Of a stretch of DNA of 64,000 bases, positions 5,735 to 43,044 are shown in pieces. The DNA is from an uncultured bacterium (GTDB taxonomy: Bacteria; Babelota; Babeliae; Babelales; Babelaceae), in the NCBI GenBank assembly GCA_963819815.1, contig CAWFXL010000001.1, positions 1,152,001 to 1,216,000 on the forward strand. Reading direction: 5' to 3'. The notes below the pieces were generated by a model. It ran no database searches. It saw nothing but the letters and a program-made list of their open reading frames with translations, and was not told the DNA's origin. Made by a program: the position numbers and the translations under genes. Every line of letters starts with the position of its first letter. Positions within the stretch are counted from its first letter, which is position 1.

Positions 5735-5740
5735 ATTTAA

Positions 5741-13193: not shown

Positions 13194-13497
13194 ATTCTCC
13201 CTTATTGCTTTCAGTATATTAAATATATATTTGAAATATCAATGATAATTATTTTTTTATTTTTAAATTAATTATGAAATTGATTATAGGTCTGAAGCGC
13301 GGGAAACAGTCCATTTAGAGAAGTTTTCTCAAAGTTTCACCTTAAGTTCTATCATGATGCTAATGGAAATAATATGGATGTTAAAATTTAATTAACGTGC
13401 CTTCTTCGGTGGGTTAGATATGTTGGAAATCCTTAGCAGATGAATGGTGAAATCATGGCGAATCAAGCAGATCGCTTGCTCAACCGAGAAATATTGA

Positions 13498-14652
13498 TCA
13501 TTCGTGAGTGATTGGTTTATTGAGTGCACCTATCGCTATAGAGCACTTATGCTGATAATATGCCTCCTGCCACCAGGCAAGAGCACAGGTTAATCCAAAG
13601 CTCAATTGAAAATCGAGAAAAAAAAGCTGATAAGGGTTGTTAAGCAACACAATCAGGGTTGTCAGGGCGAGTATATGGAGTATTCTTGGTGTTCGTCCTA
13701 TGTATATAAAACATTGATAACAAAGCCATGCTATACATGCTCGTATGAATGAGATGCTTGACCATGAAAGGAGGTAATAAAAGCCCAGGATAAGTAGTAG
13801 AATGATCTGGCTTAGTATCCAAGGAATGCAAAGGTAGACTAAAAAGGTTCTCCAGACTCCCATAAGGACCATAACGTGGAGGCCTGACCGTGCAAGGAAG
13901 TGGACAATGCCCCAGTAAGAAAAGATGCGACGTAGTTCCTGGTGATGGGTTGGTGCCTTACCCCCCATAAAAAGGGTAGAAAAAAGAGCACCTGCTTTTG
14001 GTGACATCTTATGCAGAAGATGTTTCATCATCCTTTCTCTCTTTTGTACGCACCATCTTCTTGGACTGAGCAAGGGGCGTGCCACACGTCTATATATAAA
14101 TCTATCGGAATAGATCGCAGTTACAATTCCTTCTTTAAAAAGGTACTTTTCATATGATGAATTGGTCATTCTTTTGCATGTAAGACCGTTGAATTGAATC
14201 TCATCGCCAGGCATTAGGGAGGGTTTTTTAAGGAGGTACAGCGTGATAACCCTACGTTCAGGAGCCTCCTTAAGCTTGTTGAAAGAAAGAATCCTGATGG
14301 TCAAACAGTTAGGATATCTTTTACCATGCTGAATTTCTTGATCTATGACAAGTGCCATTCCTGAAAGCGCTTGATGAGCATGATCCCGGAAAAATTGAGC
14401 GCTTGCCTGAAATGAAGCATTATAGCTGGTGAAACGATATGCTCCAGCTATAAAAAAGCTCAGAAGTATAAGGCAATGGGACCTTCTTTTGAGCCATAAA
14501 AAGCTTATAGTGGTTATGAAGATACCTCCAAGAATGGTATAGTTGATTGAAAGGATCGATGCACATAAGATGCCACCAATGCATGCCCAAGCACTTAAGA
14601 AGCTGAGCGCAATGGGCACAACTATTAAGCGCTGAGTGAAGTATTCTCTCAT
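13498..14652 (-). CDS. comEC: ComEC/Rec2 competence membrane protein (no MBL domain)
   Basis: GIVHFLARSGLH, SFIRA, NPYQLFFLDFQLSF motifs, multiple TM segments; start uncertain. Confidence 0.85.
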   Translation of the reverse strand: MREYFTQRLIVVPIALSFLSAWACIGGILCASILSINYTILGGIFITTISFLWLKRRSHCLILLSFFIAGAYRFTSYNASFQASAQFFRDHAHQALSGMALVIDQEIQHGKRYPNCLTIRILSFNKLKEAPERRVITLYLLKKPSLMPGDEIQFNGLTCKRMTNSSYEKYLFKEGIVTAIYSDRFIYRRVARPLLSPRRWCVQKRERMMKHLLHKMSPKAGALFSTLFMGGKAPTHHQELRRIFSYWGIVHFLARSGLHVMVLMGVWRTFLVYLCIPWILSQIILLLILGFYYLLSWSSISFIRACIAWLCYQCFIYIGRTPRILHILALTTLIVLLNNPYQLFFLDFQLSFGLTCALAWWQEAYYQHKCSIAIGALNKPITHE

Positions 14653-14840
14653 ATGTAAGATGCTTAACTGGCACATGAAGATGGGTGGGGAGGAGGGGTA
14701 TGGTACTAGAGTAGTTACGTGAGAAAAAACGTCAAGCAAGGATAGATAGAGATCTGAGGGAGGGGAAATATCTTGTAGGAGAAGCTGTTGGAGAAGTTAG
14801 AGATCGGTTATTCTCAGCTTTTTTGAAAATTTTTTTACAG

Positions 14841-21342: not shown

Positions 21343-22735
21343 TTATTCGCGGAACTTCGCGGCCGCTTCTTTGTAAAGCTCCTTTATTCTCATGCTTTCT
21401 GTTGCATGATCGACCATCGGCAAGGGATACCCATTGATGGAACTCTTCTGGTTATACCACGTGTGTATAATCTTCGGATCACACTGCATAAGTTCAGGAA
21501 TCCATCTTTTAATATAGGTACATTCAGGGTCGAACTTTTTCTGTTGCAACCAAGGGTTGAAAATTCTAAAAAAGGGCTGTGCATCACATCCGGTAGAAGC
21601 TACCCATTGCCAGTTTCCATTGTTCACGCACGGGTCATAGTCTTCAAGTTGTTGCGCAAAATATTTTTCTCCCCATTGCCATGAGATGTGTAGATCTTTG
21701 GTACAGAAACGAACCTACAATAAGCCGAGCTCGGTTGTGCATATAGCCAGTTGCATTTAATTGTCTCATACCTGCGTCAACAACAGGAAAGCCTGTCGAG
21801 CCTGTGCACCATCTTTCAAAATCCTTTTTGTTAGTGCTCCAGGGTACCTGTTCGAATTTTTTCTGAAAGGCATGACCAAAGACCTTAGGATTAAAGTAAG
21901 CAACATGGGTAAAAAAATCGCGCCAATAGAGTTGACGCAAGAGCCCTGAACTTCTGCCTACAGCTCCGACTACTGCATGGTACAATTCACGAATTGAGAT
22001 GGTGCCAAATTTATTGTGAGCAGAAAGCTTAGTTGTGTGTAAGGAAAGAACATCATGGGTGATCGCATAATTTTTGATATCTTTCAGATGCGTGATGATC
22101 TTTTGTGCTTCAGTACGACCACCATGAGTGTACAAGGCTGTTTGAGAGGGAACAAGACTATCAAGAAATGCATGAGGGACGAAAGACGAAGTAAGTTTTG
22201 TTATGTAGTGAGCATGTTGATTATATTGGGGCAGTGCAATAGGTAACAGTCGGTTCTTGTTAAAGAATGGCGTAAACTTTTGATAGGGAGTACCTTGCGC
22301 GCTGAGACCATCTTCCGGCTCGATTAAAAGACTATCCGGGCTCGTTATAAAAGCAACGTTGTTCTTGTTGCAGATCTTTTCAATGAGCTCATCCCTAACT
22401 TTGCTATAGGGCGTATAATCGCGGTTTACAAATACTGCATTAATTTTTTCAGCACGTATCAGACCCTCAACTATAGTATGAGGAGGTCCATGAAAGAGAA
22501 ATAGGTGAGCTCCCTTTTTTTCAAACTCTTGAGCAAGATCTTTTAATGACTCCACCATGAATTGAATGGCATGCATGCTCCTAAACATATTATCCGAACC
22601 AATTTGGTCATCAGTGAATATAAAGCAGGGAATAACGCGTTCTGATAACTCAAGTGCGTTGTGTAGTCCAGTATTATCTTCAATGCGTAGGTCCCGTCTG
22701 AAAATAAAGAGACTTGTAGAATAGCGTTTAGTCAT
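21343..22735 (-). pseudogene. phrB: deoxyribodipyrimidine photolyase, one frameshift near 21703 (likely sequencing error)
   Basis: FRRDLRIEDN, RQLYWRDF, TGFPVVDAGMRQL, HNRARL then +1 shift to KDLHISW..NNGNWQW..FRIFNP. Confidence 0.88.
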
Positions 22736-22939
22736 ATGATGCCGTGGTGGTTCGGTTGCTTGTCTAAGTGTGCAGAGTATAGACTAATCGGATGAAATGA
22801 AAAGAGATGAGAGACATCTCTTGTTTGTAGTCGATCATTTTTCCCTTCAGATCACGATATGCTCCCTGATCCCTCGAGGAACTTTATCAGCTAGCTTCGA
22901 CTCTGTTGTTGCCCTTGAGGAACATGCTATACTAACTCC

Positions 22940-24172
22940 ATGAAGATAGCACAGATATATTATCTGGTACTGACTCTTATAACCCTTCCTGCAAGATGTC
23001 CTGCTCAGAAACAGGCACTGGTAAAAGTGCCCGTTGCTGATGCATGCGGTCTTCAGATGGGTAGTTGTACAAAGCAAATCACTGATTATTATGCAACTCT
23101 TCCCTATGCACCTGATTCGGGATCATATGGATGTTTAAGAATTCACCAATTATTGTTTAATGAACTAGTTACTATCACTAAGGAATATCCTGGAGGTGAA
23201 GTTGGGGTAGAAGTTTCAGGATTCTTTTTTCTTGATGGACTCCATAGAAAGCGTCATGATTTTTGGATGCTGAAGAAAGATCTTGTGCTCGTTAACAGCG
23301 TACCGCAGAGGTTACGAAAATATATCCCACCACCAGTAGATTACGAAAAACCGATCGAAGAATTCTCAAAGAATGTGCTGGTATTGTCCGCTCCCTGGTT
23401 TGATGAAAAAACGAACCAGATCTATTCTGTGGGAACGCGATTTCTGCGCCAGCTAGAAAAAGATACCGAGACTGAGTATGCAGTGTCCTTAGTAAGTTTG
23501 GAAAAGAAAGCAGCAATCTCAGCATTGGTTCCTAAGGAAAAGGCTCTCGTATATGCACCTAAATCTTTTGATGCGTCTTTGCAAACGTTTTTATCTCTCA
23601 TTCGGAGTTGGGCTCACCAGAAGGGTGGTTTTATTCCTTATGTTTATGGTGGTTGTAGTTTTAGGGAACTGCTTCACGATATAAGTTATAGTAAAATATC
23701 TGGAACGAAGTGTCATTCGAAAGCAAGCTATTGGGATCGACCGGCAGTGAGCAGTATAGTGCCCCATTCTGGGTTTGACTGCTCCAATATGATTCTGCGT
23801 GCAGCACAGATGTCCTTTATGCCCTATTATTTTAAAAATACCTTAACGCTGATTAAGTATCTTAGGCCGCTAAAGCTGGGTGAGAAATTGGAAGAGGGTG
23901 ATCTTGTATGGTATTCAGGGCATGTTATGATTGTGAGTAACGTCGAAAAAAATCTCCTGATTGAAGCAATAGGATACGATTCAGGCTATGGACGGGTTCA
24001 TGAGCTGTCTGTACGCCAGGCGTTTCACGGTATGAAAAACTTCGAACAATTAATTCATGCTCATCATGCGCGTCAGTTTATGTACCGTCTTAATAGCTCT
24101 GGCGGGTTATGGCGTTCTGTGTACCGTCTGAGACTTTTTAAGCTGCGGAGCATCTTAGAAATTACGTATTAA
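22940..24172 (+). CDS. NlpC/P60 family peptidase, secreted
   Basis: PYVYGG, GFDCS, GDLVWYSGHVMI; signal peptide. Confidence 0.85.
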   Translation: MKIAQIYYLVLTLITLPARCPAQKQALVKVPVADACGLQMGSCTKQITDYYATLPYAPDSGSYGCLRIHQLLFNELVTITKEYPGGEVGVEVSGFFFLDGLHRKRHDFWMLKKDLVLVNSVPQRLRKYIPPPVDYEKPIEEFSKNVLVLSAPWFDEKTNQIYSVGTRFLRQLEKDTETEYAVSLVSLEKKAAISALVPKEKALVYAPKSFDASLQTFLSLIRSWAHQKGGFIPYVYGGCSFRELLHDISYSKISGTKCHSKASYWDRPAVSSIVPHSGFDCSNMILRAAQMSFMPYYFKNTLTLIKYLRPLKLGEKLEEGDLVWYSGHVMIVSNVEKNLLIEAIGYDSGYGRVHELSVRQAFHGMKNFEQLIHAHHARQFMYRLNSSGGLWRSVYRLRLFKLRSILEITY

Positions 24173-24211
24173 ACGTACACATTATTAATGCAGTAACGAG
24201 TTACTCTTTAG

Positions 24212-24415
24212 TTATTGGGTAATAATACACATCGATTTCTGTAATGATTCTATATGTTTTTCTAAATCCAGACGGATTGCTGTTAAAGCTTTAACACATT
24301 CTTTATCACCAGCCTCTTGAGCATCCTTGAGTGCATGTTTGTCAATAAACCAGCAAAGCTTACTTAATGTGCTCAGCATCTTAACTTTATTGTATGTTGA
24401 ATTATCAAGCATCAT
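24212..24415 (-). CDS. small conserved hypothetical protein (helical, ferritin-like fragment)
   Basis: GGAAGGG SD; LDN.TYN..K.L...S...W.I..H...DA...G..EC amphipathic pattern. Confidence 0.65.
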   Translation of the reverse strand: MMLDNSTYNKVKMLSTLSKLCWFIDKHALKDAQEAGDKECVKALTAIRLDLEKHIESLQKSMCIITQ

Positions 24416-24495
24416 AACGAAACCCTTCCTTTTCTATGGTAACTTGTTCTAAGGTTAGTGTGATAAAGAAAACTTCTTAACGTCAAGAGTTTGTC

Positions 24496-25743
24496 ATGAA
24501 GATTGCACAGGTGACTGCTCGGGAGCTGTACGATTCACAAGGATGGCCCACGGTGCAGTGTGAGATTATCTTAGACACGGGCGAGTTTGTAACGGCCATG
24601 GTCCCTAGAGGAACTTCGGTTGGCCTTTATGAAGCCAAAGAGATGCGTGACCAAGAATCGCGCATGGACGGTAAGGGCATGCATAAAGCCGTAGAGATTA
24701 TCGAAAGTGTTATAGCACCTCTTCTTATTGGTGAAGAGCCACGTGCGCTGGAGCTTGACCTCAAAATGATAGAACTTGATGGTACCTCCGATAAGTCTCG
24801 TCTTGGTGCTAATACGATGCTTGCCGTCAGTCAGGCTCTCTACCGAGCGGAAGCATTATGGCACGATATTGAACTCTTTGAATTGTTTGCTGCACTCTAT
24901 AATGTAGATACTGTTACGATGCCAATCCCAATGCTTAATGTTATTAATGGTGGGGCTCATGCATCAAATAACTTAGCGATACAAGAGTTTCTCATAGTCC
25001 CTGTTGGTGCTCCGACATTTAGAGCAGGATTGGAGCTCGGCATTACGGTCTACCATGAACTTGGCAAAGTACTTAGGGGCCTTGGTAAATCAACAGCGGT
25101 AGGGCTTGAAGGAGGATATGCTTCTTCATTTGCCAACGAGTATGAGGCACTTGATATTCTCAGTGAGGTTGTTGAGCGTATCAATACTCAATATACTTCA
25201 AGTTGTATGATAGCACTTGATATGGCTGCATCTCAATGGACGGTGGAGGAAGGGCTCTATCTTTGGCATCAGAATGTATACACCACTGACGAGATGATTG
25301 CGCTTTATAAAGACTTGGTCAATCGCTACCCATTGTACTCGATCGAAGATCCGTTAGGGCAAGATGATTGGAGCGGCTGGCAGGAGCTTTCTAAAGAGCT
25401 TGCAAATAGGGTACAGTTGGTGGGTGACGATATTTTTGCAACAAATGTGCAACGCATTGTCCGAGGAATTCAGGAGAAGACAGCAAATGCAGCTATTATT
25501 AAGCCTAACCAGATAGGGACGGTTACCGAGGCACTGCAGGCAATTATGTTTTGTAGAGACCATCAAATAAATACCATAGTGTCTCACCGCTCTTCAGAGA
25601 CGGAAGATACCTTTATTGCAGATCTTGTTGTTGGCACGAGTGCTGGTCAATTCAAAGCGGGTGCACCCTGTAGGTCTGAGCGTATGGCTAAATATAATAG
25701 ATTGTTAGTGATCGAAGATACCCTTACCTTTTTGGTGGAGTGA
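24496..25743 (+). CDS. eno: enolase (divergent)
   Basis: LDGT.DKSRLGAN, NVINGGAH, QEF, SIEDP, VGDD, IKPNQIG, SHRS.ETED, RSER.AKYN. Confidence 0.93.
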   Translation: MKIAQVTARELYDSQGWPTVQCEIILDTGEFVTAMVPRGTSVGLYEAKEMRDQESRMDGKGMHKAVEIIESVIAPLLIGEEPRALELDLKMIELDGTSDKSRLGANTMLAVSQALYRAEALWHDIELFELFAALYNVDTVTMPIPMLNVINGGAHASNNLAIQEFLIVPVGAPTFRAGLELGITVYHELGKVLRGLGKSTAVGLEGGYASSFANEYEALDILSEVVERINTQYTSSCMIALDMAASQWTVEEGLYLWHQNVYTTDEMIALYKDLVNRYPLYSIEDPLGQDDWSGWQELSKELANRVQLVGDDIFATNVQRIVRGIQEKTANAAIIKPNQIGTVTEALQAIMFCRDHQINTIVSHRSSETEDTFIADLVVGTSAGQFKAGAPCRSERMAKYNRLLVIEDTLTFLVE

Positions 25744-25752
25744 GCATCTGTC

Positions 25753-28119
25753 TTATGCGCTTTGCGCAGCTGGTCTTTGCACGATCGGTTTTATTCCGAT
25801 CGGTGCTTGCTTAGAGACAAGAACTCGCTTCAGTTTATGGGGATCATAAAGAGGGATAGGAGGTTCTTTTTTCTGTCCTTGTAAGATTTTAAGGCCACAG
25901 AGGGAAGTGTCGGTATTCGTTCCTGCGGCAAGAAATCGATCAATTGTTTTTTGTTCGCTTTCATCTTTAAGAAAGAGTCGATAAATCGGATCGCGTGGTA
26001 CCAAGGGTGTTTGATCTCTCGTAACAAAGTTTTTATGGTCGCACAGGTATTCGTTCGTTTTATTCGTCCAACGAGATCTGGGCTCTAAGATGGTTGGCAT
26101 AACAAAAACGGTAAGATTTGTGGTGATCGTTTCTGCTTGGGTACCTCTAAAAAATGCACCAAAGATCGGTACATGTCCTAAGATGGGAGTGTAGCTACCA
26201 AAATCAAGATTATCGACACGAAGAAGGCCACCCATCACAAGAATCTCTCCCGAGTTGAGTGTGGCTGTGGTTGTTAGTTCCTGTGTACGCCGAGTTAAAT
26301 TAGTCGTGTTGGTGTACCTATCATCTTTAAATCCTACAACTATTCTAAGACGGGTATCTGAAATAACGTGAGGAACCACATTGACGGAAAACGTTGCTGG
26401 TAAGTCGACTATAGGAATCGTGGCAGTACCATTGGTGGTGATAACAAGATCACCTGTCGTACGAATCATAGTGCTTGAATCAAGCAATCCCTCCATGTGA
26501 TTCTTGACGGTCACATAGGGATACGAATTTATTCTTGCAGATACTACCGTATTAAGAATTTCAAGGAGTCCAAATATACCTGGGGTCTTAGGATCGTTAA
26601 GAGATATCAACATAGATCCTGAGGCAATTTGGCTTGGAACATTGCCAGGCCCAATAACCTGTAGAAGGTCGCTTGCAAGCTGGGTAGGTGGTATTCCCAG
26701 TACCGAGACTACGGGAGTAATATGGGATGCTAAGTATTGCACCCCATGAGGAAGTATTGAAGAATCTGTTTTACTTCTGATGGTGCCTGAAACATTGGTT
26801 GTTTGGTCATAGGCAAACTCGACGACAAGGACTTCTAAGAGGACCTGCGGTTGAGGAGTGTCGAGCTGCTCTATAAGCTTTTTAATGATGTGCCAATCTT
26901 TCTGGCGTGCTGCAATGAGGAGTCGGTTGCCTGCATTAGTGGCTATAAAGTCTAATTTTTGTACCTCCTCAAATCCTTTTTGCTCAATGGCAATATCTTC
27001 TGTTTGGAGGGCTGGTTTGACAAGAGTTGACTCGAGAGCAGCGATTGCCACACCCTGAAATAGGGGCGGTTTTTCACTTTCAGCAGTAGCTTGCTCTCCT
27101 GTAGGGAGTGCTGCGGCAACGATACGGTTAAGTATAGGAGCCGTTTTGACACTATCAAGATAGTTAAGGTCATAATAATGGAGAATAGATTCTCCAGCAT
27201 CTTCTTGGAGATCAAGGCTATCTTGTATAAAATCGATGATCCTATCTATATTTGCTTTACGGCCCATGAGTATGACGCCATTTCTTGCGGGATCTGCGAC
27301 CATTTTGGTATCTTCGGTGATAAAATTAAGGCCATCAGCTTTAGGACCTTTTCGAATAAAAGTTCGTATCGTATCAGTTCCTGCTGCCATCTTAAGAGAT
27401 TCAAAGACGTTCACGACCTCTTGTGCAGGAAGGTACTTGAGAGGCACATAGGCTACATGTTCTTTCATTCCTTGATTGTCGAACTCTTTGAGTAGCTGTC
27501 CGATAGATGCGGCATGCGAAGCTTTGTCGATGATAATGATGGCATTACTTCTTGGATCAAACATGAGTGAGGCATTGTAGGTGAGGAGCTGTTTCAACAT
27601 CATAGACAAAGGATGAGAATCTTTTTCTGCAACCTCGGGAACCTTTAAATTTTTAAGATAATGAATGTAGATGATGCGCCCATCATCATGCGGCAACTCC
27701 TCAGGAAGAACTCCTGCATAGACAGGTAAGGGTTCCCGGTTAATAGCTCCACCGTCGACACTTGCATTACGCACAATAGTAAAGTTTTGCTCTTGCTTAA
27801 ATAGGCTAAAGCCTGATAATTCTAAGAACGTCTTTAAAAGGTTCCATGCAGCATCTTGCGAACTCTCTTTTTCTTGTGGTAGATAGGTGATCTGTTGTTG
27901 TTTGAGCATCTCAAGATCAGCAGCTCTTTGCGGGAACAGAAGATTTGATCCTGACGGGGCCATTTTTTCAAGAAGGTCTATCAGCGATTTCTTTTTAAAA
28001 GAAAAGGGCACTTTCCTATCCGGCTCATGAGAATGCTCATTAGACGACTCTGCATGGAGCATCATGCCTACACTGAGCATGGTCCCCATGACCCAAACAT
28101 GATTCCATCGTACATTCAT
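25753..28119 (-). CDS. secretin (GspD-like), paralog 3
   Basis: Signal peptide, N-domain repeats (DPRSNAIII, DPARNGVIL), LDTPQPQVLLEV, GEILVMGGL, TPILGHVPIFGAFF. Confidence 0.88.
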   Translation of the reverse strand: MNVRWNHVWVMGTMLSVGMMLHAESSNEHSHEPDRKVPFSFKKKSLIDLLEKMAPSGSNLLFPQRAADLEMLKQQQITYLPQEKESSQDAAWNLLKTFLELSGFSLFKQEQNFTIVRNASVDGGAINREPLPVYAGVLPEELPHDDGRIIYIHYLKNLKVPEVAEKDSHPLSMMLKQLLTYNASLMFDPRSNAIIIIDKASHAASIGQLLKEFDNQGMKEHVAYVPLKYLPAQEVVNVFESLKMAAGTDTIRTFIRKGPKADGLNFITEDTKMVADPARNGVILMGRKANIDRIIDFIQDSLDLQEDAGESILHYYDLNYLDSVKTAPILNRIVAAALPTGEQATAESEKPPLFQGVAIAALESTLVKPALQTEDIAIEQKGFEEVQKLDFIATNAGNRLLIAARQKDWHIIKKLIEQLDTPQPQVLLEVLVVEFAYDQTTNVSGTIRSKTDSSILPHGVQYLASHITPVVSVLGIPPTQLASDLLQVIGPGNVPSQIASGSMLISLNDPKTPGIFGLLEILNTVVSARINSYPYVTVKNHMEGLLDSSTMIRTTGDLVITTNGTATIPIVDLPATFSVNVVPHVISDTRLRIVVGFKDDRYTNTTNLTRRTQELTTTATLNSGEILVMGGLLRVDNLDFGSYTPILGHVPIFGAFFRGTQAETITTNLTVFVMPTILEPRSRWTNKTNEYLCDHKNFVTRDQTPLVPRDPIYRLFLKDESEQKTIDRFLAAGTNTDTSLCGLKILQGQKKEPPIPLYDPHKLKRVLVSKQAPIGIKPIVQRPAAQSA

Positions 28120-28130
28120 GGCTATCGTCC

Positions 28131-30578
28131 TTAAGCAACTAACTCAGCAACTTCGCCGGGAGTAGCCTTTTTTGTTATAGGGGGCTCCGGACGTTTTGTT
28201 GGTCTACGTGCTTCCCTGCGACGCTGTCTTGAACCTTTTATATATTCTGCATCAGGTGGGTTGCTTACCTGGCTCAAGTATTTTGGTAGAACTTGTTCTG
28301 CTGGATTTGTACCTTTAAAGAAGAGCCGAGTAATCGGATCTTTTGATTCACCAAAAATTGCGAAGTCATCAATGTCACGCTGACCTTTGCGAATTTTATC
28401 TGCAGTATACACATCAAGGCCACCACGCAGTTTTGGATGAACGATCGTAGGGCAGATAAAAATGGCGATATTAGTCGTTGTTGGCATACGGCTTTTACTA
28501 CTAAAGAATGAACCTATTATAGGAATTCGCGACAAAATAGGGGTACCCGTAACGATGTCATTTTGTGTCGTGCTTGCAAGCCCTCCAATTACCAGGACCT
28601 GTCCACTTTCTAAATTGGTATTGGTATTTACCCGTCGTGTAAGACGCGTATTAGAGTTAGCATCAACAAAGGTATTGATATCTACAGCGACTTGGAGACT
28701 AAGCCGCTGTAGGGAGCTTAAACGTGGTATCATCTGCACCTGCAGTGTTGCCGGAAGATCGACAATTTCAACAGTAATTACCCCTGCAGCTCCTGGAATT
28801 GCGTTACCTACAACGCGGCGGAGCTCCTGGTTTGTGAGTGTTGCTTTCTGATTATTTGTCGTTATCAGGTACGGGTGTGAAAGAATTTTGCTATATAGTG
28901 CCGTATCTAAGATTTGTAAGAGACCAAATATACCTGGAGTTGAAGGATCATTAATTGAAACAATCGTTGACCCTGGAGCAAGCAATGAAGTGAGTGAAGG
29001 ATTGCTGGCATTGGCACCGGTAATTATTCCCAGTAAATCTACATCAAGCTGTGGCGGAGTTGCCCCAAGTACGTTATTGACGGCTGTTATGTTTGAGGAA
29101 AGAAGTTGAAATCCATTAGATGGAAGATTCGTTGCGGTCTTATTACGGGTGGTTCCTGCAATAAGTTTTTGTCGCGTGCCGGTGACATCTGCGATAACTA
29201 CCTCAAGAATAACATAGGGCTGTGGCTTATCAACTGCTTCTATGAGATCCTTAAGCCTCACCCAATCATCTTGTAATGCTGCAACAATTAGCCTGTTGCC
29301 TCCAGTAAAGATTTTTTGAGAGCCAAGGCCTGTAGGGAGGAAGCCTCCAGTTGCTTCAAGTGTAATTTCCTCTGTGGTCGTTTTTATATCAACCTCTTTT
29401 ACTTCTTCAGCTGCGATGACGACGCCTTGGAAATACCGTTCTGGGCCTGCCGGTTGTCCTGCTGTTGCTTGAGTTCCTGTAGGTGGGAGTGGAGAAACAA
29501 CTTGATTTAACACTGTTGCAAATTGAGTGGCATCGAGGTACTGAAGGTCATAGGAGTGGAGGACCGACTTACCACTATCAGGTGCTGTATCCATATAGGT
29601 TGATACAAAATCAGCAATTCGCTCCACCGATGATTGGCGGCCCATGAGGATAATATTGTTTTGTCGTGGATCTGCTACAAGAACGGTATGTTCTGCAAAG
29701 CTTGATAAGGATTCTGTACGGGAATCATGCCGTATAGAAGGTCCAGATCCGTCACCTCCAGCGGCTGCACGGAGAGACTCAAATATTTTTACGACATCTT
29801 GGGCCGGTGTGTTATTCAGATGAACGACCTGAATAGTTTCATGGAACCCGCTATGGTCAAGTTCATCGATGATACGCATAACTGAGGCTATCGTGTTTGC
29901 TTTATCCGTAATAATTATAGCATTTGTTTTTTGTTCAAACACAACGGGAGCACCGGGAGTAAGCATGTCTTTAAGGATGCGCGCAATGGCGTTGGTATCC
30001 TTGTCCTTTTCATCAGGTACGCGCAGATTTCTTAGATAATAGATGTACCGTATATATTCTTGGCTATCGGGAAGCTTATCCGGTTTCACATTTGCAAAGA
30101 TAGGTAAAACTGAACGGCTGATACCCGGCTCTAGAGGTTTGCCAACGCGCTCGATGGAATATAAGAAGGGCTTCTTTGGACTTATTGCAAAGCCAGAGAG
30201 CTCGAGAAAAGTACTGAGGAGCTGCCAGGCCTCTTCAATCGGGATTTCCATACGCCCTTGTGGTCGGTAGGTGATCGTTTGCGCCTTCAGTATTTCAAGG
30301 TCTGCTGCATTTTGGGGCAGAATAATATTGGCCTCCTTTTTAAGAGCCAATTCGCCGATAATATCGACTAAACTTTTCTTTTCAAATGAAAAATTGATGA
30401 ACCCTTTTTGGGGTTCTTTCTTTTGAACAAAATCGAAGGGTTCATCTTTTAGCGGTACATCTTGAAGTAGAGAATTTGGGGTGGGTGTATCATCTTTTGC
30501 ATAAGCGGCAAAAGATAAAGCAACCCCTACAAGGAGCATAGAAAGAACCCGACGAGAAAAGAATTGCAGGTCGATCAT
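28131..30578 (-). CDS. secretin (GspD-like), paralog 2
   Basis: Signal peptide, TNAIII/DPRQNNIIL N-domains, DKPQPYVILEV, GQVLVIGGL, TPILSRIPIIGSFF. Confidence 0.9.
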   Translation of the reverse strand: MIDLQFFSRRVLSMLLVGVALSFAAYAKDDTPTPNSLLQDVPLKDEPFDFVQKKEPQKGFINFSFEKKSLVDIIGELALKKEANIILPQNAADLEILKAQTITYRPQGRMEIPIEEAWQLLSTFLELSGFAISPKKPFLYSIERVGKPLEPGISRSVLPIFANVKPDKLPDSQEYIRYIYYLRNLRVPDEKDKDTNAIARILKDMLTPGAPVVFEQKTNAIIITDKANTIASVMRIIDELDHSGFHETIQVVHLNNTPAQDVVKIFESLRAAAGGDGSGPSIRHDSRTESLSSFAEHTVLVADPRQNNIILMGRQSSVERIADFVSTYMDTAPDSGKSVLHSYDLQYLDATQFATVLNQVVSPLPPTGTQATAGQPAGPERYFQGVVIAAEEVKEVDIKTTTEEITLEATGGFLPTGLGSQKIFTGGNRLIVAALQDDWVRLKDLIEAVDKPQPYVILEVVIADVTGTRQKLIAGTTRNKTATNLPSNGFQLLSSNITAVNNVLGATPPQLDVDLLGIITGANASNPSLTSLLAPGSTIVSINDPSTPGIFGLLQILDTALYSKILSHPYLITTNNQKATLTNQELRRVVGNAIPGAAGVITVEIVDLPATLQVQMIPRLSSLQRLSLQVAVDINTFVDANSNTRLTRRVNTNTNLESGQVLVIGGLASTTQNDIVTGTPILSRIPIIGSFFSSKSRMPTTTNIAIFICPTIVHPKLRGGLDVYTADKIRKGQRDIDDFAIFGESKDPITRLFFKGTNPAEQVLPKYLSQVSNPPDAEYIKGSRQRRREARRPTKRPEPPITKKATPGEVAELVA

Positions 30579-30594
30579 AATGATCCTAACATCG

Positions 30595-31140
30595 TTATTC
30601 AAGCTCCAATGTTGCCACGGTTATATCTATATCTACAGTCTGACGACCGGGTGTTCTTTTAATAGTAACCTCTTTTGTATAGAGCTGAGGAATCTCTGCT
30701 ATACCCACAAGAAAGTCGGTTACTTCCTTCATGGTAAGCCCCTTCAAATGTGAGGTTATCTGTACTTCTGTTTTCCCGCTAATTGATTCACCTGTTGTGG
30801 GAGATGAGGTATCAACGAGTTTTGGAGCCATTCCAACATTGCGCACAACAGATTGGTACGCTTCACCAATTCTGAAGTCCTTATCTTTTGAGAGAATTTC
30901 TTCAACTTGCTGTTGTTGTGCTTTTACCAGTTTCGCATCTCGAAGAATTTGAGAGGTCTGTTTGCGCATAGCATCAAGCTGTTTCAGTTGGCCCGTATAC
31001 CAATTTACTCGCCTATAATGCATGAAGATAAGAAGACCAAAGACCAGGCAAAATACTCCTGCAAAAATGCCAAGATATTTAGCAAGCTCTTTCGGTTCAG
31101 AATATTTAACGACATCCCGTAGCGAATCAAGCATGTTCAT
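30595..31140 (-). CDS. GspM/PilO-like inner-membrane platform protein
   Basis: Single TM, coiled coil, ferredoxin-like C-terminus (LKGLTMKEVTDFL); position after GspL-like gene. Confidence 0.65.
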   Translation of the reverse strand: MNMLDSLRDVVKYSEPKELAKYLGIFAGVFCLVFGLLIFMHYRRVNWYTGQLKQLDAMRKQTSQILRDAKLVKAQQQQVEEILSKDKDFRIGEAYQSVVRNVGMAPKLVDTSSPTTGESISGKTEVQITSHLKGLTMKEVTDFLVGIAEIPQLYTKEVTIKRTPGRQTVDIDITVATLELE

Positions 31141-32686
31141 TGATAGCCTCCGGATTAATAACGAGTGTTATAGGCTCAGATTTAAAGTTGAAGGCCTGCA
31201 ATTTCTGGACCTTTTTAAAGATTGGGCATTCAAGCTGGTCCTGCAAGCGGGTGAGCTGTTGATACCCAGGAACACTTCCATATATCTTAATAGTGTCGTC
31301 TTTTATAATAAGTGTATCAAGTTGAAGTTGAGACTCTTTCATATTAATGCATTTGGTGAGTTCGGCCAGATAAGTTACGTATGCATATCTATTTTCTGCA
31401 GAGATACGTTTCCAAGCCGATTCTTGCTTGCGAAGTTCTGCTTGTGCCGCTTTGTTTGCAATATCGAGTCGCTGCGTTTGAGTTGCTCGCAATTTGAACT
31501 GTCTTTTAAGTTCATCGATAGCTTCCAATTCTGATGCTTTATAACTCTTCTTTAAGGCGCGAGTTCTTAAAAAGCTATAGCCCATAAAAGTTGCTAACAG
31601 GGTTATGGCAAGGGCTCCAATAGTGTATAGTTGATAGGTAACCTGCTTGTTCTCTTTCTCCAGCTCTTTTTCTTGAAGTAGGTTAAATGACTCAGTTTTT
31701 TCAGAAGCACAACCAGCAGCTATGCTTGGCATATAGACTCCTGATATAGTAGGAATTTTACTTGAGACTACCTGCTCCTGAATCAGCTTTTTGGGGTCAA
31801 GCAGCTCTGTGGGGCATGCCAAACTGCGGGTTGCATGCTCTTTAACTCCCTGATCTTGTATGTCGGTAACCGCTCCTGTAAGAACTATTTTTGAAAGTGA
31901 CGATCCTGGAGCAACTTTTTGAAGAGCGATATCAGTGGTAAGTTTTATCTCATCAAAAAGTGAGCTTACCTGTTCTTGCATCTGCTTATCAAAAACATTT
32001 TCTTGGTGGTTTGCTTTGGGAATATGAACACCTTTTTGAAGTGTTCTCACAAATTTAAGTTGCCCATTAGTTATGAGACCTATCGTAGTCTCAAAAGTTC
32101 CCATCTCGACCAAGGCTATGGTTGCATTGCCTTGTCCGGGAATTGTTTCATAAAGACTATAGAGCTCTAGAATCCCCACAGAAAGCTTATTAAGAGGAAG
32201 CTCAGCATCTTCAAAATATTTTTCAAAACGGGCTATGCTATCTCGCTTCATCGCAGTTACAAGCACATTGGTCTTTTGCGCTTCTTCATTTGTTCCGATG
32301 ATGATACCATCTACTACCCCGTCAGCAAGATTGAAGGGGAGTTGTGGTTCTACTTCAAAAGGGATCACAATCTTAACTTTTTTAGCTCCAATAAACGGTA
32401 ATGTCAGCTCCTTAAAAATCGCATACGAACTTGGAATTATCCCATAGATTTCATGATAGGATCCAAGTTTCATTTTGAGATTCTTGAGCGCTACAACCAC
32501 CTGCTCATCAAAGCGCTCTGCACCATGGAATCGTTCAGTAAGTACGCTCTCTATAGTGCGAGATCTTCCTTTCAGTACAATCACTGTTGCATGGACACTC
32601 TGTTTTGTAATCTCGATACTTACAATTCTATGAGCTAAGGGGTAATAAGAGCCTATGCGCTTTGGCAAAAACAATGAGACAATCAT
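31127..32686 (-). CDS. GspL / PilM-PilN-like protein
   Basis: Actin-like cytoplasmic domain (ELTLPF, IPFEVEPQLPF, LVEMG, IVLTG), TM, periplasmic PilN-like tail. Confidence 0.75.
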   Translation of the reverse strand: MIVSLFLPKRIGSYYPLAHRIVSIEITKQSVHATVIVLKGRSRTIESVLTERFHGAERFDEQVVVALKNLKMKLGSYHEIYGIIPSSYAIFKELTLPFIGAKKVKIVIPFEVEPQLPFNLADGVVDGIIIGTNEEAQKTNVLVTAMKRDSIARFEKYFEDAELPLNKLSVGILELYSLYETIPGQGNATIALVEMGTFETTIGLITNGQLKFVRTLQKGVHIPKANHQENVFDKQMQEQVSSLFDEIKLTTDIALQKVAPGSSLSKIVLTGAVTDIQDQGVKEHATRSLACPTELLDPKKLIQEQVVSSKIPTISGVYMPSIAAGCASEKTESFNLLQEKELEKENKQVTYQLYTIGALAITLLATFMGYSFLRTRALKKSYKASELEAIDELKRQFKLRATQTQRLDIANKAAQAELRKQESAWKRISAENRYAYVTYLAELTKCINMKESQLQLDTLIIKDDTIKIYGSVPGYQQLTRLQDQLECPIFKKVQKLQAFNFKSEPITLVINPEAINEHA

Positions 32687-35508
32687 GCAAGGACTCCTTC
32701 TTGGTCAACAAGGTCTAGAAGCCCTTGGCGCTTTTCTGGTGAAGACGAACGTGCTGGTTTTGTTTCTAGCGGAGAATCGTCCAAGTTGGCTTGTTTACGC
32801 TGTGAGGCATCTATGTACCGTTGTTGTGTAGCCACAAACTTATCAAGAGCGCTGGCCTGTTTCTCTTTATGATCACTGAAGAACCATCGATGTATAGGGT
32901 CACGTTTTTCAGAGCGCGAGCGCATAGAATACAGTGAGTCTTTAATGTCATTGATATGTCCAAAGGTATAGGTTTCAACGACCTCAGGTTTGATAATCTC
33001 AGGGCAAATGAGAATGAGAAGACTTGTGCGTTCAACAGTTTTCTTTTTACTCTTAAAGAGCCATCCAAGAAGCGGTATATCACCTAGAACAGGTACTTTT
33101 TGAATGGTCTCTGAGATCGTATCTTGGATAAAGCCGCCAAGAGCAAGAACCTCGCGGTTGGCAAGGAGTGCTTCGGTACTTATTTTTCGAATAATACGGT
33201 TCTGTGTAGTAGCATCGGTAAATTGGCCGAGCTCAACGTATACATTGAGATCAACCATATCATCATAACTTATCTGCGGGGTGATGACGATTCTAAGATC
33301 TGCAGAGAGGTCACCTTGAGCCTGAGTCTGGGTTTGACCTGTTACGATTGAGGTAGTAGTACGTCGCGTTTCCCCCACTTTAAATTCAGCCTTGTATTTA
33401 TGAGTTGCGATAAGGAACGGGTTAGCAACGACGCTGGTTCGCGTATATGATTCAAGTGCTTGCAACAGGCCGAAGAAGCCAAACATGTCTTGTCCGAGGG
33501 TCACCAAGGTACTTCCTGCCTGAAATGGTGAAACCCCATTGACACTGTTTGCAAGATTAATCAGATTGCCAAGTAGGCGCACTGCTCCGTTAGGAACTTG
33601 AGTGGGAGTCGTTCCTGAAGGAGGATTGGTAATGATAGGTCCAAGCATTGAAGTTTGGAAGTTAATATTGTTTTTTCCTAGGATGCTATCAAGGCCTCCA
33701 GTTCCGTCGCAGCAGGCTACACTATTTCTTAATTGAGTTCCTAACTCATTGGTATTGGTAAGATCAACGTTAAGAATAAGAATCTTGATGATCACTTGGG
33801 GCTGCTCGACATCAAGTTTTTGAATGACCTCTCTCAGTTTGAGGAACTCTTCATAATCAGCATTGATAATGAGCCTGTTAGCTGATGGTTCATCGGTAAT
33901 TCTTACGGTAGGTTTAAAGAACTTATTGCCATCGCGGACACCCCCCACGAGGGCGGGCGCAGTGTTAGCAGGATAGGAGTTAAACTTCTGTATGACTTCG
34001 TTTAATATTTTTGCAAGCGAAGTTGCGTCGATGTATTTAAGTTGAATGATATGTAATGGAGAAAACGGTAATTCAAGTGTCTTGTCGACATAGGTTTTCA
34101 CAAAGTCTTCAAAGCGCTTAATATTTTCGTGTGTACCTAAAACGATGAGCGAGTTGGTATAAGGCTCCTCAAATACTCGGGTAGCTTCAGTAAAGTATTG
34201 TGTGGTACTCGGTTTTCTCTGGCGCATATAGGGATTGAATGTGGCGCTCTTCGGGTCTTTTCCAATTAATCGATAATAGAGCTCTCGAACTTCACGTGCA
34301 TCTGTATGTTTTAATCGGATGATGGAGAGAGTTTCGGGTAATGTTACTTGGTCGATTTCCCTGAGAATGCCCATGACCGATTTAATATTTGCGGCCTTAT
34401 CAGTGATGATAACAGCACGTAGTGCTGGTACTTCGATAATAGGTGCAGAAGAGCCACTTTTAAGTTGTTCAATTATTTGAACAACCGTAGAGAGATCGGC
34501 GTTCTCTGCAAAGTATACATACCGAATTTTTGCATCGGTGTTTGGAAGTAACTCAGGATCGATGCCGATAAAGGTAGGCATCGGTTCACGGTTAGCAGAT
34601 GGTTTATCTCGTGAGGCGCTTGCAGTGACTCGGTACGTTCGTGGCTGTGTTGCAGGAATAATAGAGAACCCAGCCATTTCAAGGAAGGTAAGTCCAATAT
34701 CCCAGGCCTCCTTCAGTGAAAGGGGGACCATAGACTTAAAAGTTATTTTAGTACCCGCTAACGGTTGGAGCCCCTCTGCACGATTAGGCTCGACATAATC
34801 ATCTAGAATAAACGTAATGTTAAGAACATCTGAAAGGAATTTAAGCAGCTCGGAAATTTCTTCATTATCAAAATTCATTTCAACACGTTCTTCAGGATCA
34901 GCCCCTTTCCAGGGCTCGAGATACTGTCCTAAATAAATAGCTCCCGATGCGGTAAGTTTTTTAAGTGCTTGCTCATTCTCCTGTTTTTGCTCTTGATCAG
35001 TAAGCGAAGGAAGCTCTCCTGGTAAGGTAACATCGGCCATAGTGACCGTTGGCACCAGCTCATGTTCACGCTTAGAGGGAGCTACTTTGCCTGACTTGCT
35101 ACCTTTTTTAGACTTGCCAGGAGGTACCGGTTTGTGCTGCACTTGGGGAATATCAATGATATCAAGCACATCCTGCGCTGGCTTTCGTTTGGTTTCTTTA
35201 GGCTGATCTTTTTGGTCGCCAAGCGCAGGTACCGAACCAAAAGGAATATTCGTAATTTCAACATTTCCACCCGCAACAGATTCTTTTTGGGGCTTAGCGG
35301 GTTCTCCACCCTTTGGCTCTTGGGGGGGCTTTTCAGGAGAAGTTTCTGGCGCGGAGGGAGCAGTAGATACAGAGGGTAGCATGTCACTAAGCTTACCTAC
35401 GTTATCTTGGCTGCTTGGGCTTTCGACGGCTGTCTCAGCCTTAAGGTGAGCTAATCCGCCAACAAGAAGAACCAACATTAAGGTCAAGCGAATGAGCATG
35501 TACTTCAT
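32683..35508 (-). CDS. gspD: secretin (GspD-like), paralog 1 with long Pro/Lys-rich N-terminal extension
   Basis: MNFDNEEI N0, LKHTDA/LKYIDA N-domains, LDVEQPQV, VLALGGFI, KVPVLGDIPLLGWLF. Confidence 0.9.
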   Translation of the reverse strand: MKYMLIRLTLMLVLLVGGLAHLKAETAVESPSSQDNVGKLSDMLPSVSTAPSAPETSPEKPPQEPKGGEPAKPQKESVAGGNVEITNIPFGSVPALGDQKDQPKETKRKPAQDVLDIIDIPQVQHKPVPPGKSKKGSKSGKVAPSKREHELVPTVTMADVTLPGELPSLTDQEQKQENEQALKKLTASGAIYLGQYLEPWKGADPEERVEMNFDNEEISELLKFLSDVLNITFILDDYVEPNRAEGLQPLAGTKITFKSMVPLSLKEAWDIGLTFLEMAGFSIIPATQPRTYRVTASASRDKPSANREPMPTFIGIDPELLPNTDAKIRYVYFAENADLSTVVQIIEQLKSGSSAPIIEVPALRAVIITDKAANIKSVMGILREIDQVTLPETLSIIRLKHTDAREVRELYYRLIGKDPKSATFNPYMRQRKPSTTQYFTEATRVFEEPYTNSLIVLGTHENIKRFEDFVKTYVDKTLELPFSPLHIIQLKYIDATSLAKILNEVIQKFNSYPANTAPALVGGVRDGNKFFKPTVRITDEPSANRLIINADYEEFLKLREVIQKLDVEQPQVIIKILILNVDLTNTNELGTQLRNSVACCDGTGGLDSILGKNNINFQTSMLGPIITNPPSGTTPTQVPNGAVRLLGNLINLANSVNGVSPFQAGSTLVTLGQDMFGFFGLLQALESYTRTSVVANPFLIATHKYKAEFKVGETRRTTTSIVTGQTQTQAQGDLSADLRIVITPQISYDDMVDLNVYVELGQFTDATTQNRIIRKISTEALLANREVLALGGFIQDTISETIQKVPVLGDIPLLGWLFKSKKKTVERTSLLILICPEIIKPEVVETYTFGHINDIKDSLYSMRSRSEKRDPIHRWFFSDHKEKQASALDKFVATQQRYIDASQRKQANLDDSPLETKPARSSSPEKRQGLLDLVDQEGVLA

Positions 35509-36719
35509 GAGTTAGCTCCTGCTGATAAGGAAGGTGAAGGCATGTTTTCAGGTCTTCCTCCATACCGTTTCATTGCATCAAGATCACGCTTTTTAATATC
35601 TTTTATATCGTTGCGCGCGGGCGTAGTTGGAGCTTGTGGTAGTACGGGAGCTACTTGAGCAACCGAAGGCCCATTTTTTGGTACGTCGTTCTGAGCTACT
35701 GGCTTCTTAGCTGCTACTGGTTGCGAAGGGCTCGGAGCTCTGCGTTGCGTACCGTCATCTTCTGTATCGAGCCTTGCTGTTGGATCTGCAATATTAAAAA
35801 GTGTATACGTGTTTACATTGAGGGTATTATGGCGCATATATTGAACAGGTATCTGGGCACCTAGTTCAAGTGATGCTATCTCATTAAAGAGAGCCATGCG
35901 CTCAGCTGATGAAACGGGAGCTGTTGAAAGGATCTTGGTAATAATATCTCCAGGCTCAAAGCCACCTGCAAAGCCGATCGATGTTTTCTTCATCTTGCCT
36001 ATTCGTACCCCAGCCGGCTTCCCTGCGCGGGATACGGTAGTGAGGTCGAGCATTTCAATAAGGTCTGCAAGGGAATTCACACGAGACTTAAACTCTGTAG
36101 GATTTATTAGGAAACTATGCTCACTTTGTTGTTGTAGTACTTCTGACCAACTTGTATCTTGCAGGATGGTAGTATCTTCTTTGGCCTCGTTTGAGTAAAC
36201 ATATATCGTTTCTTGCTGTCCGTTTGATCGTACTACAAGAACTTTTTTCGGTAAGATTCGTAAGATGTAGGCATCGAGTACTTTGTCACCGACTTTGAAC
36301 GACTCAGTCTTTCCTGTATTGGTGTTAACAAAAGATACCTGAGATTTCATTTCGTTGTTTGATCCGATAATACCGGAAATTTTGAGTGGTAATGGCTTTA
36401 AAAATTGAATAGCCTGTTTAGGTTTGCTCCTTACCGGAATACGTGCGGGTGGTGTAGGAATAGCTGGAAGTGTTTCTAAGGATTTGATGGGTATAATAGC
36501 GGGACGATAGGTGCCAAAAAGATCGTGTTCTTCGTAAATAACACTGACATCTCGCGGTGCTGCTTCTTCTTTCTTGCCAACTTCAGGTATCGCGGTAACT
36601 TTGATAGCAGCGGCCTTTGGAGCTATAAAAAGTGATTTCATGGAATAGAGGATGAATGCAAAAAGTGCCACAAGGATTATCGCGAATAAACTTGTGATAA
36701 TCCACAGAGGGCTTTTCAT
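35505..36719 (-). CDS. GspC-like protein with PDZ-like domain
   Basis: N-terminal TM, HR domain (LKISGII, FKVGDKV), GFEPGDII PDZ motif; directly upstream of a secretin. Confidence 0.75.
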   Translation of the reverse strand: MKSPLWIITSLFAIILVALFAFILYSMKSLFIAPKAAAIKVTAIPEVGKKEEAAPRDVSVIYEEHDLFGTYRPAIIPIKSLETLPAIPTPPARIPVRSKPKQAIQFLKPLPLKISGIIGSNNEMKSQVSFVNTNTGKTESFKVGDKVLDAYILRILPKKVLVVRSNGQQETIYVYSNEAKEDTTILQDTSWSEVLQQQSEHSFLINPTEFKSRVNSLADLIEMLDLTTVSRAGKPAGVRIGKMKKTSIGFAGGFEPGDIITKILSTAPVSSAERMALFNEIASLELGAQIPVQYMRHNTLNVNTYTLFNIADPTARLDTEDDGTQRRAPSPSQPVAAKKPVAQNDVPKNGPSVAQVAPVLPQAPTTPARNDIKDIKKRDLDAMKRYGGRPENMPSPSLSAGANS

Positions 36720-41690: not shown

Positions 41691-42017
41691 TTATGCTTTT
41701 GTGTAAATTTGTTTTCCTTCACGCTTCACCTTGAAACAGAGCGAAAACATATCTGTTGTTTGCTCTTCAAATTCCACTTTCGTGTACAACAAAAGATCTT
41801 TGGCAATTCCTAGATTAAAAAGTGCCAAGTACCCTTCAAAAAGTAGTCCATTTCGATCTTTAGCGAGTTCGTTAACAATGATTAATACATCGAGATCACT
41901 ATCCTCTGTTGGCACACCCCATGCATATGAACCAAAAAGATAGATCTTGAGAGGGTTATATGTTTCAATGAGACTTCTTTTTGCGGCGCTGATTAAATGC
42001 TCGGTTGCACTTATCAT
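41691..42017 (-). CDS. minimal nucleotidyltransferase (MNT) antitoxin-like, orphan
   Basis: IYLFGSYAWG.PTEDSDLDVL; GGAGG SD before ATG 42017. Confidence 0.88.
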   Translation of the reverse strand: MISATEHLISAAKRSLIETYNPLKIYLFGSYAWGVPTEDSDLDVLIIVNELAKDRNGLLFEGYLALFNLGIAKDLLLYTKVEFEEQTTDMFSLCFKVKREGKQIYTKA

Positions 42018-42305
42018 ATTTACCTCCAAATCTCCTCAGGCTAGTGTTTAATTGTGCGATGAAATAATCTACTTTTTTTGAATATTCTACATATCCTATC
42101 TATCAGGAAGAAGTATATCAAAGTGAGCTTAATGCTTACAACTTTATTAGTTCAGATGTTGTGATTTAAAGATCTCTTTTCTCGGAACTTTGAGAGCATC
42201 AGAAAATACTCATGCTAACTCGAAGCAATGTTTTGAAAAAGAAATGTATTCATGGTATACTCGCTGCCATGGGACCTATACTTGTATACCTCATGAAAGG
42301 ACACC

Positions 42306-42626
42306 ATGATTAACAGAGATATGATTGAATTAGTGAAAAATAAACTTGTAGAAACGTATAATCCTCAAGCTATCTATCTTTTTGGTTCATATGCATGGGG
42401 AATGCCAGATGATGAAAGTGACCTTGATCTTCTTATAGTAGTCGATGCACTGACTGACACACATTACAAAATGCTAGTGGATGGTCATATGGCACTTTTA
42501 CGGTTAGATGTTTCAAAAGATCTGTTGCTGTATACCAAAGAACAGTTTGACGTGCTTTCACAAGACAATATGACCTTCTGTTATAAAATCAAACAAAGAG
42601 GGATTAAGATTTATGCAAAAGCATAG
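42306..42626 (+). CDS. MNT antitoxin of MNT-HEPN pair
   Basis: IYLFGSYAWG.PDDESDLDLL; overlaps the HEPN gene. Confidence 0.9.
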   Translation: MINRDMIELVKNKLVETYNPQAIYLFGSYAWGMPDDESDLDLLIVVDALTDTHYKMLVDGHMALLRLDVSKDLLLYTKEQFDVLSQDNMTFCYKIKQRGIKIYAKA

Positions 42627-43044
42627 CCTTTGGTTGGCTTATGCACAAGATGATCTAGAAATTGCGCAATTAATTCTTGCTTCAAGGGGCATAAGAATCG
42701 TCGCTGTGTTATATCATGCGCAACAATCTGCTGAAAAGGCGTTAAAAGCCTACTTAATTGCCCAAGATGCCTCAATACTGAAAACACATGATCTTGTTAA
42801 GCTGGTAATCGCTTGTACCAAGTTAGATTCAGAGTTTGAAACTATTGGAGAGCATGCGGCTGCGTTTAATCCATTTTCAATAAAAACCAGATATCCGGAA
42901 GATTTTTTCTTAATGCTTCACACGAGCGTTGCAATTCAGGCGATAGATCATGCCCGCCAGATCCTTGAATTTACAGAAATAAAAATAGCTTCTATAGCTC
43001 CTTCATGTAGAATGCCTAAAAAGCAGATTCGTAAGCAAATTTAA
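42613..43044 (+). CDS. HEPN domain protein
   Basis: WL..A..DL..A, HAQQSAEKALKA, KTHDL..L, TRYP. Confidence 0.9.
   Translation: MQKHSLWLAYAQDDLEIAQLILASRGIRIVAVLYHAQQSAEKALKAYLIAQDASILKTHDLVKLVIACTKLDSEFETIGEHAAAFNPFSIKTRYPEDFFLMLHTSVAIQAIDHARQILEFTEIKIASIAPSCRMPKKQIRKQI

Follow-up and report, generated by a model that had tools for sequence, protein, structure and literature searches.

Two diverged secretins in one type II secretion-like operon of Dependentiae, with a third copy in a single lineage

The operon and its three secretins

The bacterium considered here belongs to the Dependentiae (TM6), and its genome of 1.64 Mb is assembled in two contigs and is 88% complete. We analysed a stretch of 64,000 nucleotides of this genome (C1:1152001-1216000), referred to below as the window. 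Between positions 25753 and 36719 of the window lie six closely packed open reading frames (ORFs) on the minus strand, which make up an operon resembling that of a type II secretion system (T2SS) and which include the genes for three full-length secretins, here termed D1, D2 and D3. An earlier note on this DNA had placed a tightly coupled T2SS-like operon with three intact secretins at the same coordinates, and had remarked that genes for GspE, GspF and pseudopilins are absent from the window; the coordinates and Pfam matches bear out the former statement, and a Pfam scan of the window shows the latter to be correct. From the first gene to the last, the operon reads as follows.

36719..35505, minus strand: GspC-like adaptor, 404 aa (weak NCBIfam GspC matches and an hhalign match to Escherichia coli K-12 GspC)
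35508..32683, minus strand: secretin D1, 941 aa (Pfam Secretin, Secretin_N and GspD N0 domain; PulD fold)
32686..31127, minus strand: PilM/GspL-like protein, 519 aa (Pfam PilM_2)
31140..30595, minus strand: GspM-like small bitopic protein, 181 aa (tentative; judged by its place in the operon, its length and a hydrophobic helix at the N-terminus)
30602..28131, minus strand: secretin D2, 823 aa (Pfam Secretin and Secretin_N; PulD fold)
28119..25753, minus strand: secretin D3, 788 aa (Pfam Secretin and Secretin_N; tandem duplicate of D2)

In the order C-D1-L-M-D2, where C, L and M denote the GspC-, GspL- and GspM-like genes, the four junctions are overlaps of 4, 4, 14 and 8 nt, and a gap of 11 nt separates D2 from D3. 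Motifs resembling Shine-Dalgarno sequences (GGAG or AGGA) are found upstream of the operon gene starts, and D2 begins with a TTG codon, with an in-frame ATG 8 codons downstream. Scans for promoters and terminators between positions 25000 and 38500 returned counts at the level of shuffled sequence (31 vs 25.3 expected; 14 vs 12.0), and neither tRNAs nor Rfam families were matched in the window. A search of sequencing runs returned one DNA run that contains the operon and no RNA run. The six genes are probably co-transcribed, and D1 and D2 are probably produced together, since both are encoded in one tightly packed operon.

All three secretins score above the gathering score of Pfam Secretin (PF00263; 27.5 bits), at 120.5 bits for D1 (E 7.4e-35), 89.0 bits for D2 (E 3.4e-25) and 73.1 bits for D3 (E 2.7e-20). 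Secretin_N is likewise present in each of them (E 1.6e-21 in D2), and an N0 domain (GspD N0) is detected by Pfam in D1. The best NCBIfam family for D1, D2 and D3 is that of the T2SS secretin GspD (TIGR02517; 262.5, 193.9 and 166.3 bits, respectively), with the PilQ, SctC, MshL and HofQ families all scoring lower; the PilQ scores (TIGR02515) are 143.8, 93.9 and 85.2 bits, under the subfamily cut-off of 284.35. Pairwise alignments of the three proteins are collinear across ~730 aa, and identity amounts to 39% between D2 and D3 (over 731 aa), 27% between D1 and D2, and 25% between D1 and D3. Each N-terminus combines a charged and a hydrophobic segment with an A-x-A-like site, the signal peptides having been judged by eye. 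Orthologue lengths span 770-1142 aa for D1 and 769-952 aa for D2.

AlphaFold2 (AF2) models of D1 and D2, built from a 51-row alignment of Dependentiae secretins, reached predicted local distance difference test scores (pLDDT) of 71 and 76. Both models begin with an N-terminal helix and a disordered linker, and they follow a common plan of four alpha/beta N-domains, a beta-barrel and C-terminal helices. The N-terminal linker of D1 (approximately residues 21-168, between the signal peptide and N0) is rich in Pro, Lys and Glu and is predicted to be disordered, and D2 carries an insertion in N3. The top Foldseek match of D1 and of D2 is PulD (6hcg; E 1.3e-37 and 9.1e-33, respectively), followed by the GspD proteins of enterotoxigenic E. 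coli (ETEC), E. coli and Vibrio. As modelled, D1 and D2 are predicted to be complete gated-channel proteins, with N0-N3, a barrel and C-terminal helices.

The ancestry of the three proteins was examined in a secretin tree of 63 rows (IQ-TREE quick search, LG+C20 model, HofQ root), from which the related locus L022 and a split PilQ-like gene described below were left out. D1, D2 and D3 together form one clade, with a Shimodaira-Hasegawa approximate likelihood ratio test (SH-aLRT) support of 99, and E. coli GspD is the sister of this clade. A further clade (support 100), apart from D1, D2 and D3, unites ten short secretins of Dependentiae (~450-570 aa), and HofQ is likewise apart. Within the GspD-related clade, the main D1 clade has a support of 100 and the clade of D2 plus D3 a support of 99, and all D3 sequences fall into one clade (SH-aLRT 99) with longer branches, nested among the D2 sequences of a sub-clade of the window's family. 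The simplest reading of this topology would be one old duplication of a GspD-type gene into D1 and D2, followed by a single, later tandem duplication of D2 into D3. That D2 and D3 are secretins of the PilQ/HofQ type, an outcome that the earlier note had named as one that would undercut its proposal, was considered and ruled out by the NCBIfam scores and by the tree, where both are placed with D1 and next to E. coli GspD.

Absence of purifying selection on D2 and D3 had been named in the same vein. Nei-Gojobori comparisons with L022 (dS 0.11-0.17; against L023 and L025, synonymous sites have reached saturation) gave dN/dS values of 0.07 for D2 and 0.10 for D3, alongside 0.12 for the GspC-like gene, 0.11 for D1, 0.12 for the PilM-like gene and 0.06 for the GspM-like gene, and all six operon genes are thus under purifying selection. 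Mean identity within each of D1, D2 and D3 lies between 0.34 and 0.54 in all folded domains, N0 through barrel, and therefore none of the three contains a decayed domain. D1 is the most and D3 the least conserved of the three. A separate candidate reading, in which D3 is a decaying copy, was rejected on the grounds of its dN/dS of 0.10 and the conservation of all its domains.

The three remaining genes of the operon are recognizable to different degrees. For the GspC-like gene, there is no Pfam match, and the NCBIfam matches to GspC_delta (6.4e-9) and TIGR01713 (3.2e-6) are both weak and under cut-off. A profile of 22 orthologues aligns with E. coli K-12 GspC at an hhalign probability of 94% (E 9.5e-8) across residues 109-308, which correspond to the HR and PDZ regions; the protein has an N-terminal membrane helix, an HR-like region, a PDZ-like region and a low-complexity tail, and on this profile comparison we judge the first operon gene to be homologous to GspC. 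The third gene matches PilM_2 (PF11104; E 2.7e-9, 36.9 bits vs a cut-off of 27), and its orthologues of ~540 aa, which are located between secretins, reach E values down to 1.7e-31. A weak case can be made that this gene has the architecture of GspL, that is, a PilM-like cytoplasmic domain, a membrane helix and a periplasmic part, because 519 aa leaves room for the latter two. Pfam T2SSM matches 3 of the 23 orthologues of the fourth gene (best E 7.9e-4), whose designation as GspM-like is tentative.

Conservation of the pair and its inner-membrane platform

To place the operon in its phylum, PF00263 was searched in 151 sampled Dependentiae genomes, all within one GTDB order. At least two matches are present in 149 of them, the exceptions being G140 (1 match) and G102 (0), and the secretin pairs typically lie ~4.7 kb apart on the same strand. 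The gene order C-D1-L-M-D2 recurs in all 22 complete related loci, which represent at least nine family codes; a 23rd related locus is a 4.7-kb contig truncated at both ends by contig limits. In most genomes, the single PilM_2 match is the ~540-aa gene between D1 and D2. Loss of just D1 or just D2 was found in none of the 151 genomes, the two exceptions lacking both or being fragmented assemblies.

The third copy has a much narrower distribution. D3 immediately follows D2 in the window, in L022 (whose proteins are 97-98% identical), in L023 and in G048, G098, G152 and G079, and it follows D2 across a contig break in G133. In a search of the family, D3 was present in 6 of the 24 genomes with a match, the other 18 having one D2-type gene. 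The conserved unit across the sampled Dependentiae is therefore the D1/D2 pair and not the triplet, and D3 is a tandem D2 duplicate confined to a sub-clade of the window's family.

Whether the pair serves one machine or two can be approached through genomes with a single motor, defined here by one T2SSF protein (two domain matches) and one T2SSE match at E <= 1e-30. Thirty-two of the 151 genomes have one T2SSF and one T2SSE protein, and two or more secretin matches persist in 30 of them; by family code, the single-motor genomes number 13/13 in f5, 11/12 in f6, 2/2 in f9, 1/1 in f16 and 5 in f1. Five of them were checked for pilin-like genes, and each contains a cluster of 3-4 N_methyl pilin-like genes, which lies beside GspF in all three for which the GspF position was listed. 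In the 151-genome search, most families are without a short (PilQ-type) secretin. Genomes that keep the D1/D2 pair can lack the second motor and platform or the short secretin, which are thus dispensable, whereas the pair is not; D1 and D2 are not redundant. Since 30 of the 32 single-motor genomes keep both, D1 and D2 most likely serve one machine, and this co-retention counts against an idea of 2016, taken up below, that a second gspD replaces PilQ. It is thus probable, on comparative genomic grounds, that D1 and D2 both work with the same inner-membrane platform, and the suggestion of one platform made in the earlier note gains support from these single-ATPase, single-platform genomes.

Machine parts at other loci and further features of the genome

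We propose that the operon would encode the outer-membrane and alignment half of a single T2SS-like (type IV filament) machine common to the sampled Dependentiae. The parts of this half-machine would be the GspC-like adaptor, D1, a GspL analogue of PilM/PilN type, the GspM-like protein and D2, with the GspE motor, the GspF platform, the pseudopilins and the prepilin peptidase being supplied from other loci. In such a machine, the N0 domains would dock onto the HR region of the GspC-like protein, the secretins would form the channel, and D1 and D2 would divide the labour between them; in the lineage of the window, D3 would be a third variant at the D2 position. Genes for the remaining parts, and for a second set of related components, are found in the window's genome at the following loci.

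C1:1005295-1007091: GspE (TIGR02533, 649.7 bits, above the cut-off of 630.25)
C1:1257215-1260795: GspF, then a T2SSG-type pseudopilin and further pilin-like genes, 41 kb past the window
C1:1448769-1449095: prepilin peptidase (Peptidase_A24, 55.1 bits)
C1:839477-840694: second platform gene
Contig 2: second, shorter GspE/PilB-type ATPase
C1:22134-31468: classical type IV pilus cluster with PilM, PilN, pilin-like genes and a PilQ-like secretin (PilM/PilN/PilQ-like part at 22134-27348)

The GspF protein scores 358.5 bits, under the NCBIfam cut-off of 424, and matches Pfam T2SSF at E 2.3e-58; the GspG-type pseudopilin matches Pfam T2SSG at E 3.5e-13. The PilM of the classical pilus cluster matches PF11104 at E 1.3e-54, and a comparable classical PilM is present in none of the 150 other sampled Dependentiae genomes, the next best match (E 1.7e-31) being a GspL-like gene; the cluster may have been horizontally acquired. 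Its PilQ-like secretin is split into two overlapping ORFs of 447 and 120 aa, by either a frameshift or an assembly error.

Within the window, the operon is bordered on one side by a convergent enolase gene, the 3' end of which lies 9 nt from D3, and on the other by a MoxR ATPase gene located 164 nt upstream of the GspC-like gene, both identified by Pfam. Several features farther away are recorded here as observations in their own right. A TLC-family ATP/ADP translocase is encoded at 48354-49748 on the minus strand (PF03219, E 2.3e-27), a hallmark of energy parasitism that fits the intracellular lifestyle of Dependentiae. Two genes for small nucleotidyltransferases (NTP_transf_2 / Polbeta) lie at 41691-43044, with a HEPN-domain gene after the second, and by domain content this is the layout usual for HEPN/MNT toxin-antitoxin pairs. 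On the minus strand at 11832-14739, a gene for a clostripain-family (C11) peptidase adjoins a ComEC-like competence-channel gene. Finally, the region at 5735-7482 (1.75 kb) is low in GC (0.377), has no ORF of at least 90 aa and contains three direct copies of a ~215-240 nt element (5741-5981, 6297-6537 and 7046-7254), inside each of which a hairpin is conserved; the element has no further copies in the genome and no Rfam or tRNA match, and it could represent tandem small-RNA genes or a local repeat.

Alternative readings, known systems and biological meaning

With a shared platform as the starting point, the reading that we tentatively favour, at somewhat less than even confidence, is that D1 and D2 would each assemble into a homo-oligomeric channel with a specialty of its own, such as a particular cargo set or filament state. 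Several observations weigh against the overall picture of one GspD-type machine with an old secretin pair. D1, D2 and D3 all score under the GspD equivalog cut-off (TIGR02517; 351.35 bits), the profile of the third gene aligns with E. coli GspL at an hhalign probability of 18%, which is weak, and the profile of the fourth gene gave no match to single-sequence E. coli GspM. In the tree, monophyly of D1 as a whole has a support of 40, with the D1 and D2 sequences of f10 and f12 (three genomes) branching without resolution at the base, and the tree itself has two outgroup sequences and long outgroup branches and comes from a quick search. In approximately 119 of the 151 genomes, ATPase and platform are each present a second time, and a split between two machines is conceivable there. 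The sampled genomes are, moreover, related and so do not count as independent cases.

Every solved secretin entry among the matches listed consists of many copies of one chain, and the matched T2SS secretin entries hold 15 copies, an odd number with which a ring cannot strictly alternate two subunits. The main alternative, to which we give perhaps a third of the whole or a little under and against which these structures count, is that D1 and D2 form an obligate hetero-oligomer, either in a mixed ring or in two rings locked together, with D3 as an alternative to D2 or as a third subunit. Such an arrangement, in which each paralogue would be unable to close a ring alone, as in other duplicated ring subunits, would nonetheless account for a pair that is never lost singly, even as the second ATPase or platform is missing in 32 of the 151 genomes and the short secretin in most families; the common domain order and collinearity of D1 and D2 would suit it, and the close packing of the genes suggests coupled translation. 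Two essential specialised channels, however, predict the same co-retention.

A division of the pair between two machines has been raised in the literature. According to the gspD passages of Yeoh et al. 2016 (PMC4776705), all seven TM6 genomes compared there have two gspD copies and lack pilQ, and one gspD copy may stand in for PilQ; a passage of Deeg et al. 2019 (PMC6561590) mentions pilus assembly 'through a derived pulD channel'. One gspD would accordingly belong to a T2SS and the other would replace PilQ in a type IV pilus, which would agree both with the two ATPases and two platform proteins of most sampled genomes and with the lack of a PilQ-type secretin in most families. We regard this division as improbable. 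Besides the fact that 30 of the 32 single-motor genomes retain both secretins, D2 is located inside the GspC/L/M operon and groups with GspD rather than with HofQ, and the families that have an additional short secretin still keep D1 and D2. In family f10, for example, a third, short secretin of ~560-580 aa often lies 2-3 kb from a long GspE/PilB-type ATPase (G142:C6:39719-43612; G041:C1:656152-660731; G077:C8:26959-30779), and f10 genomes thus hold three secretin types of different origin. Improbable as well, finally, is a set of redundant or interchangeable gates in which D2 and D3 are spares able to replace D1 on the same platform: the three do share one architecture and one operon, and D3 is later-added and fastest-evolving, yet frequent loss would be expected of spares in genomes of 0.8-1.9 Mb and the pair is instead present in 149 of 151, with strong purifying selection on all copies, so that redundancy is possible for D3 alone.

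Whichever way the pores are built, the Dependentiae operon shares with the canonical T2SS (Klebsiella PulC/D/L/M; E. coli K-12 GspC/D/L/M) a GspC-like adaptor with HR and PDZ regions and the secretin plan of N0-N3, barrel and C-terminal helices, with PulD as the best fold match, and GspE, GspF, GspG and a prepilin peptidase are likewise encoded in the window's genome. While the canonical system has one secretin, the Dependentiae operon has two and that of the window three, all co-operonic. Unlike in the canonical system, the genes in the window's genome are scattered across at least five loci, the position of GspL is held by a protein with a PilM-scoring N-domain, D1 has a long disordered N-terminal linker, and the secretins fall short of the GspD equivalog level. 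By gene count, the rule of GspD systems, in which a single secretin gene supplies a homo-oligomer, does not hold here, with two paralogues across the sample and three in the window. More than one secretin can be used with one T2SS platform in Pseudomonas aeruginosa, where the orphan secretin XqhA can replace XcpQ. XqhA is, however, an unlinked and dispensable spare, whereas D1 and D2 are co-operonic and co-retained. With the PilMNOPQ proteins of type IVa pili (T4aPs; E. coli HofMNOPQ for comparison), the operon has in common the PilM-like N-domain of its third gene, and the secretins belong to the same superfamily. In contrast to T4aPs, the Dependentiae operon includes a GspC-like gene, and its secretins score under the PilQ cut-off and are separate from HofQ in the tree.

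The nearest published analogue of the D1/D2 pair, as far as the consulted passages of PMC8134430 go, is a mitochondrial T2SS-derived system of some protists in which GspD and a divergent GspDL also represent two co-occurring secretin C-domain paralogues, a pairing that the authors of that work interpret as the pore having become more elaborate. The organisms there are eukaryotes, and the N-domains are separate polypeptides, whereas D1 and D2 are full-length and encoded in one bacterial operon. As described in the gspD text of PMC4776705, the two gspD copies of TM6 are the same gene pair as D1/D2; that text, supplementary table S5 aside, contains nothing on an interleaved operon, a third copy, selection or retention in single-motor genomes. 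The proposal in the earlier note of an undescribed architecture consequently stands in part: that paper had already reported gspD in duplicate in TM6, and the operon layout and the third copy were not found described. More broadly, literature searches, in which supplements were not covered, did not turn up any account of an operon with two interleaved secretins, of a third paralogue or of the argument from single-motor genomes; the remarks in PMC4776705 and PMC6561590 were the only relevant text that they returned. PMC6668835 mentions secretins in 21 passages, and none of the 12 examined deals with several secretins in one system.

What distinguishes the Dependentiae is that two diverged full-length secretins in one secretion operon are kept across the sampled phylum of small-genome, obligate intracellular parasites. 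Because the pair is kept even with one motor and one platform, the second pore protein is suggested to do something that the first cannot. If the pore were indeed built of unlike subunits, it would, as far as our searches show, have no precedent among bacterial secretins, and mixed or paired secretin rings are directly testable in the cultured Dependentiae, namely, Babela, Vermiphilus and Chromulinavorax. In Chromulinavorax, signal peptides are reported on 44% of coding sequences in the relevant passage of PMC6561590. Dependentiae deliver much of their proteome to the host cell, and for this reason the T2SS-like machine described here is likely to be a main route of host manipulation.

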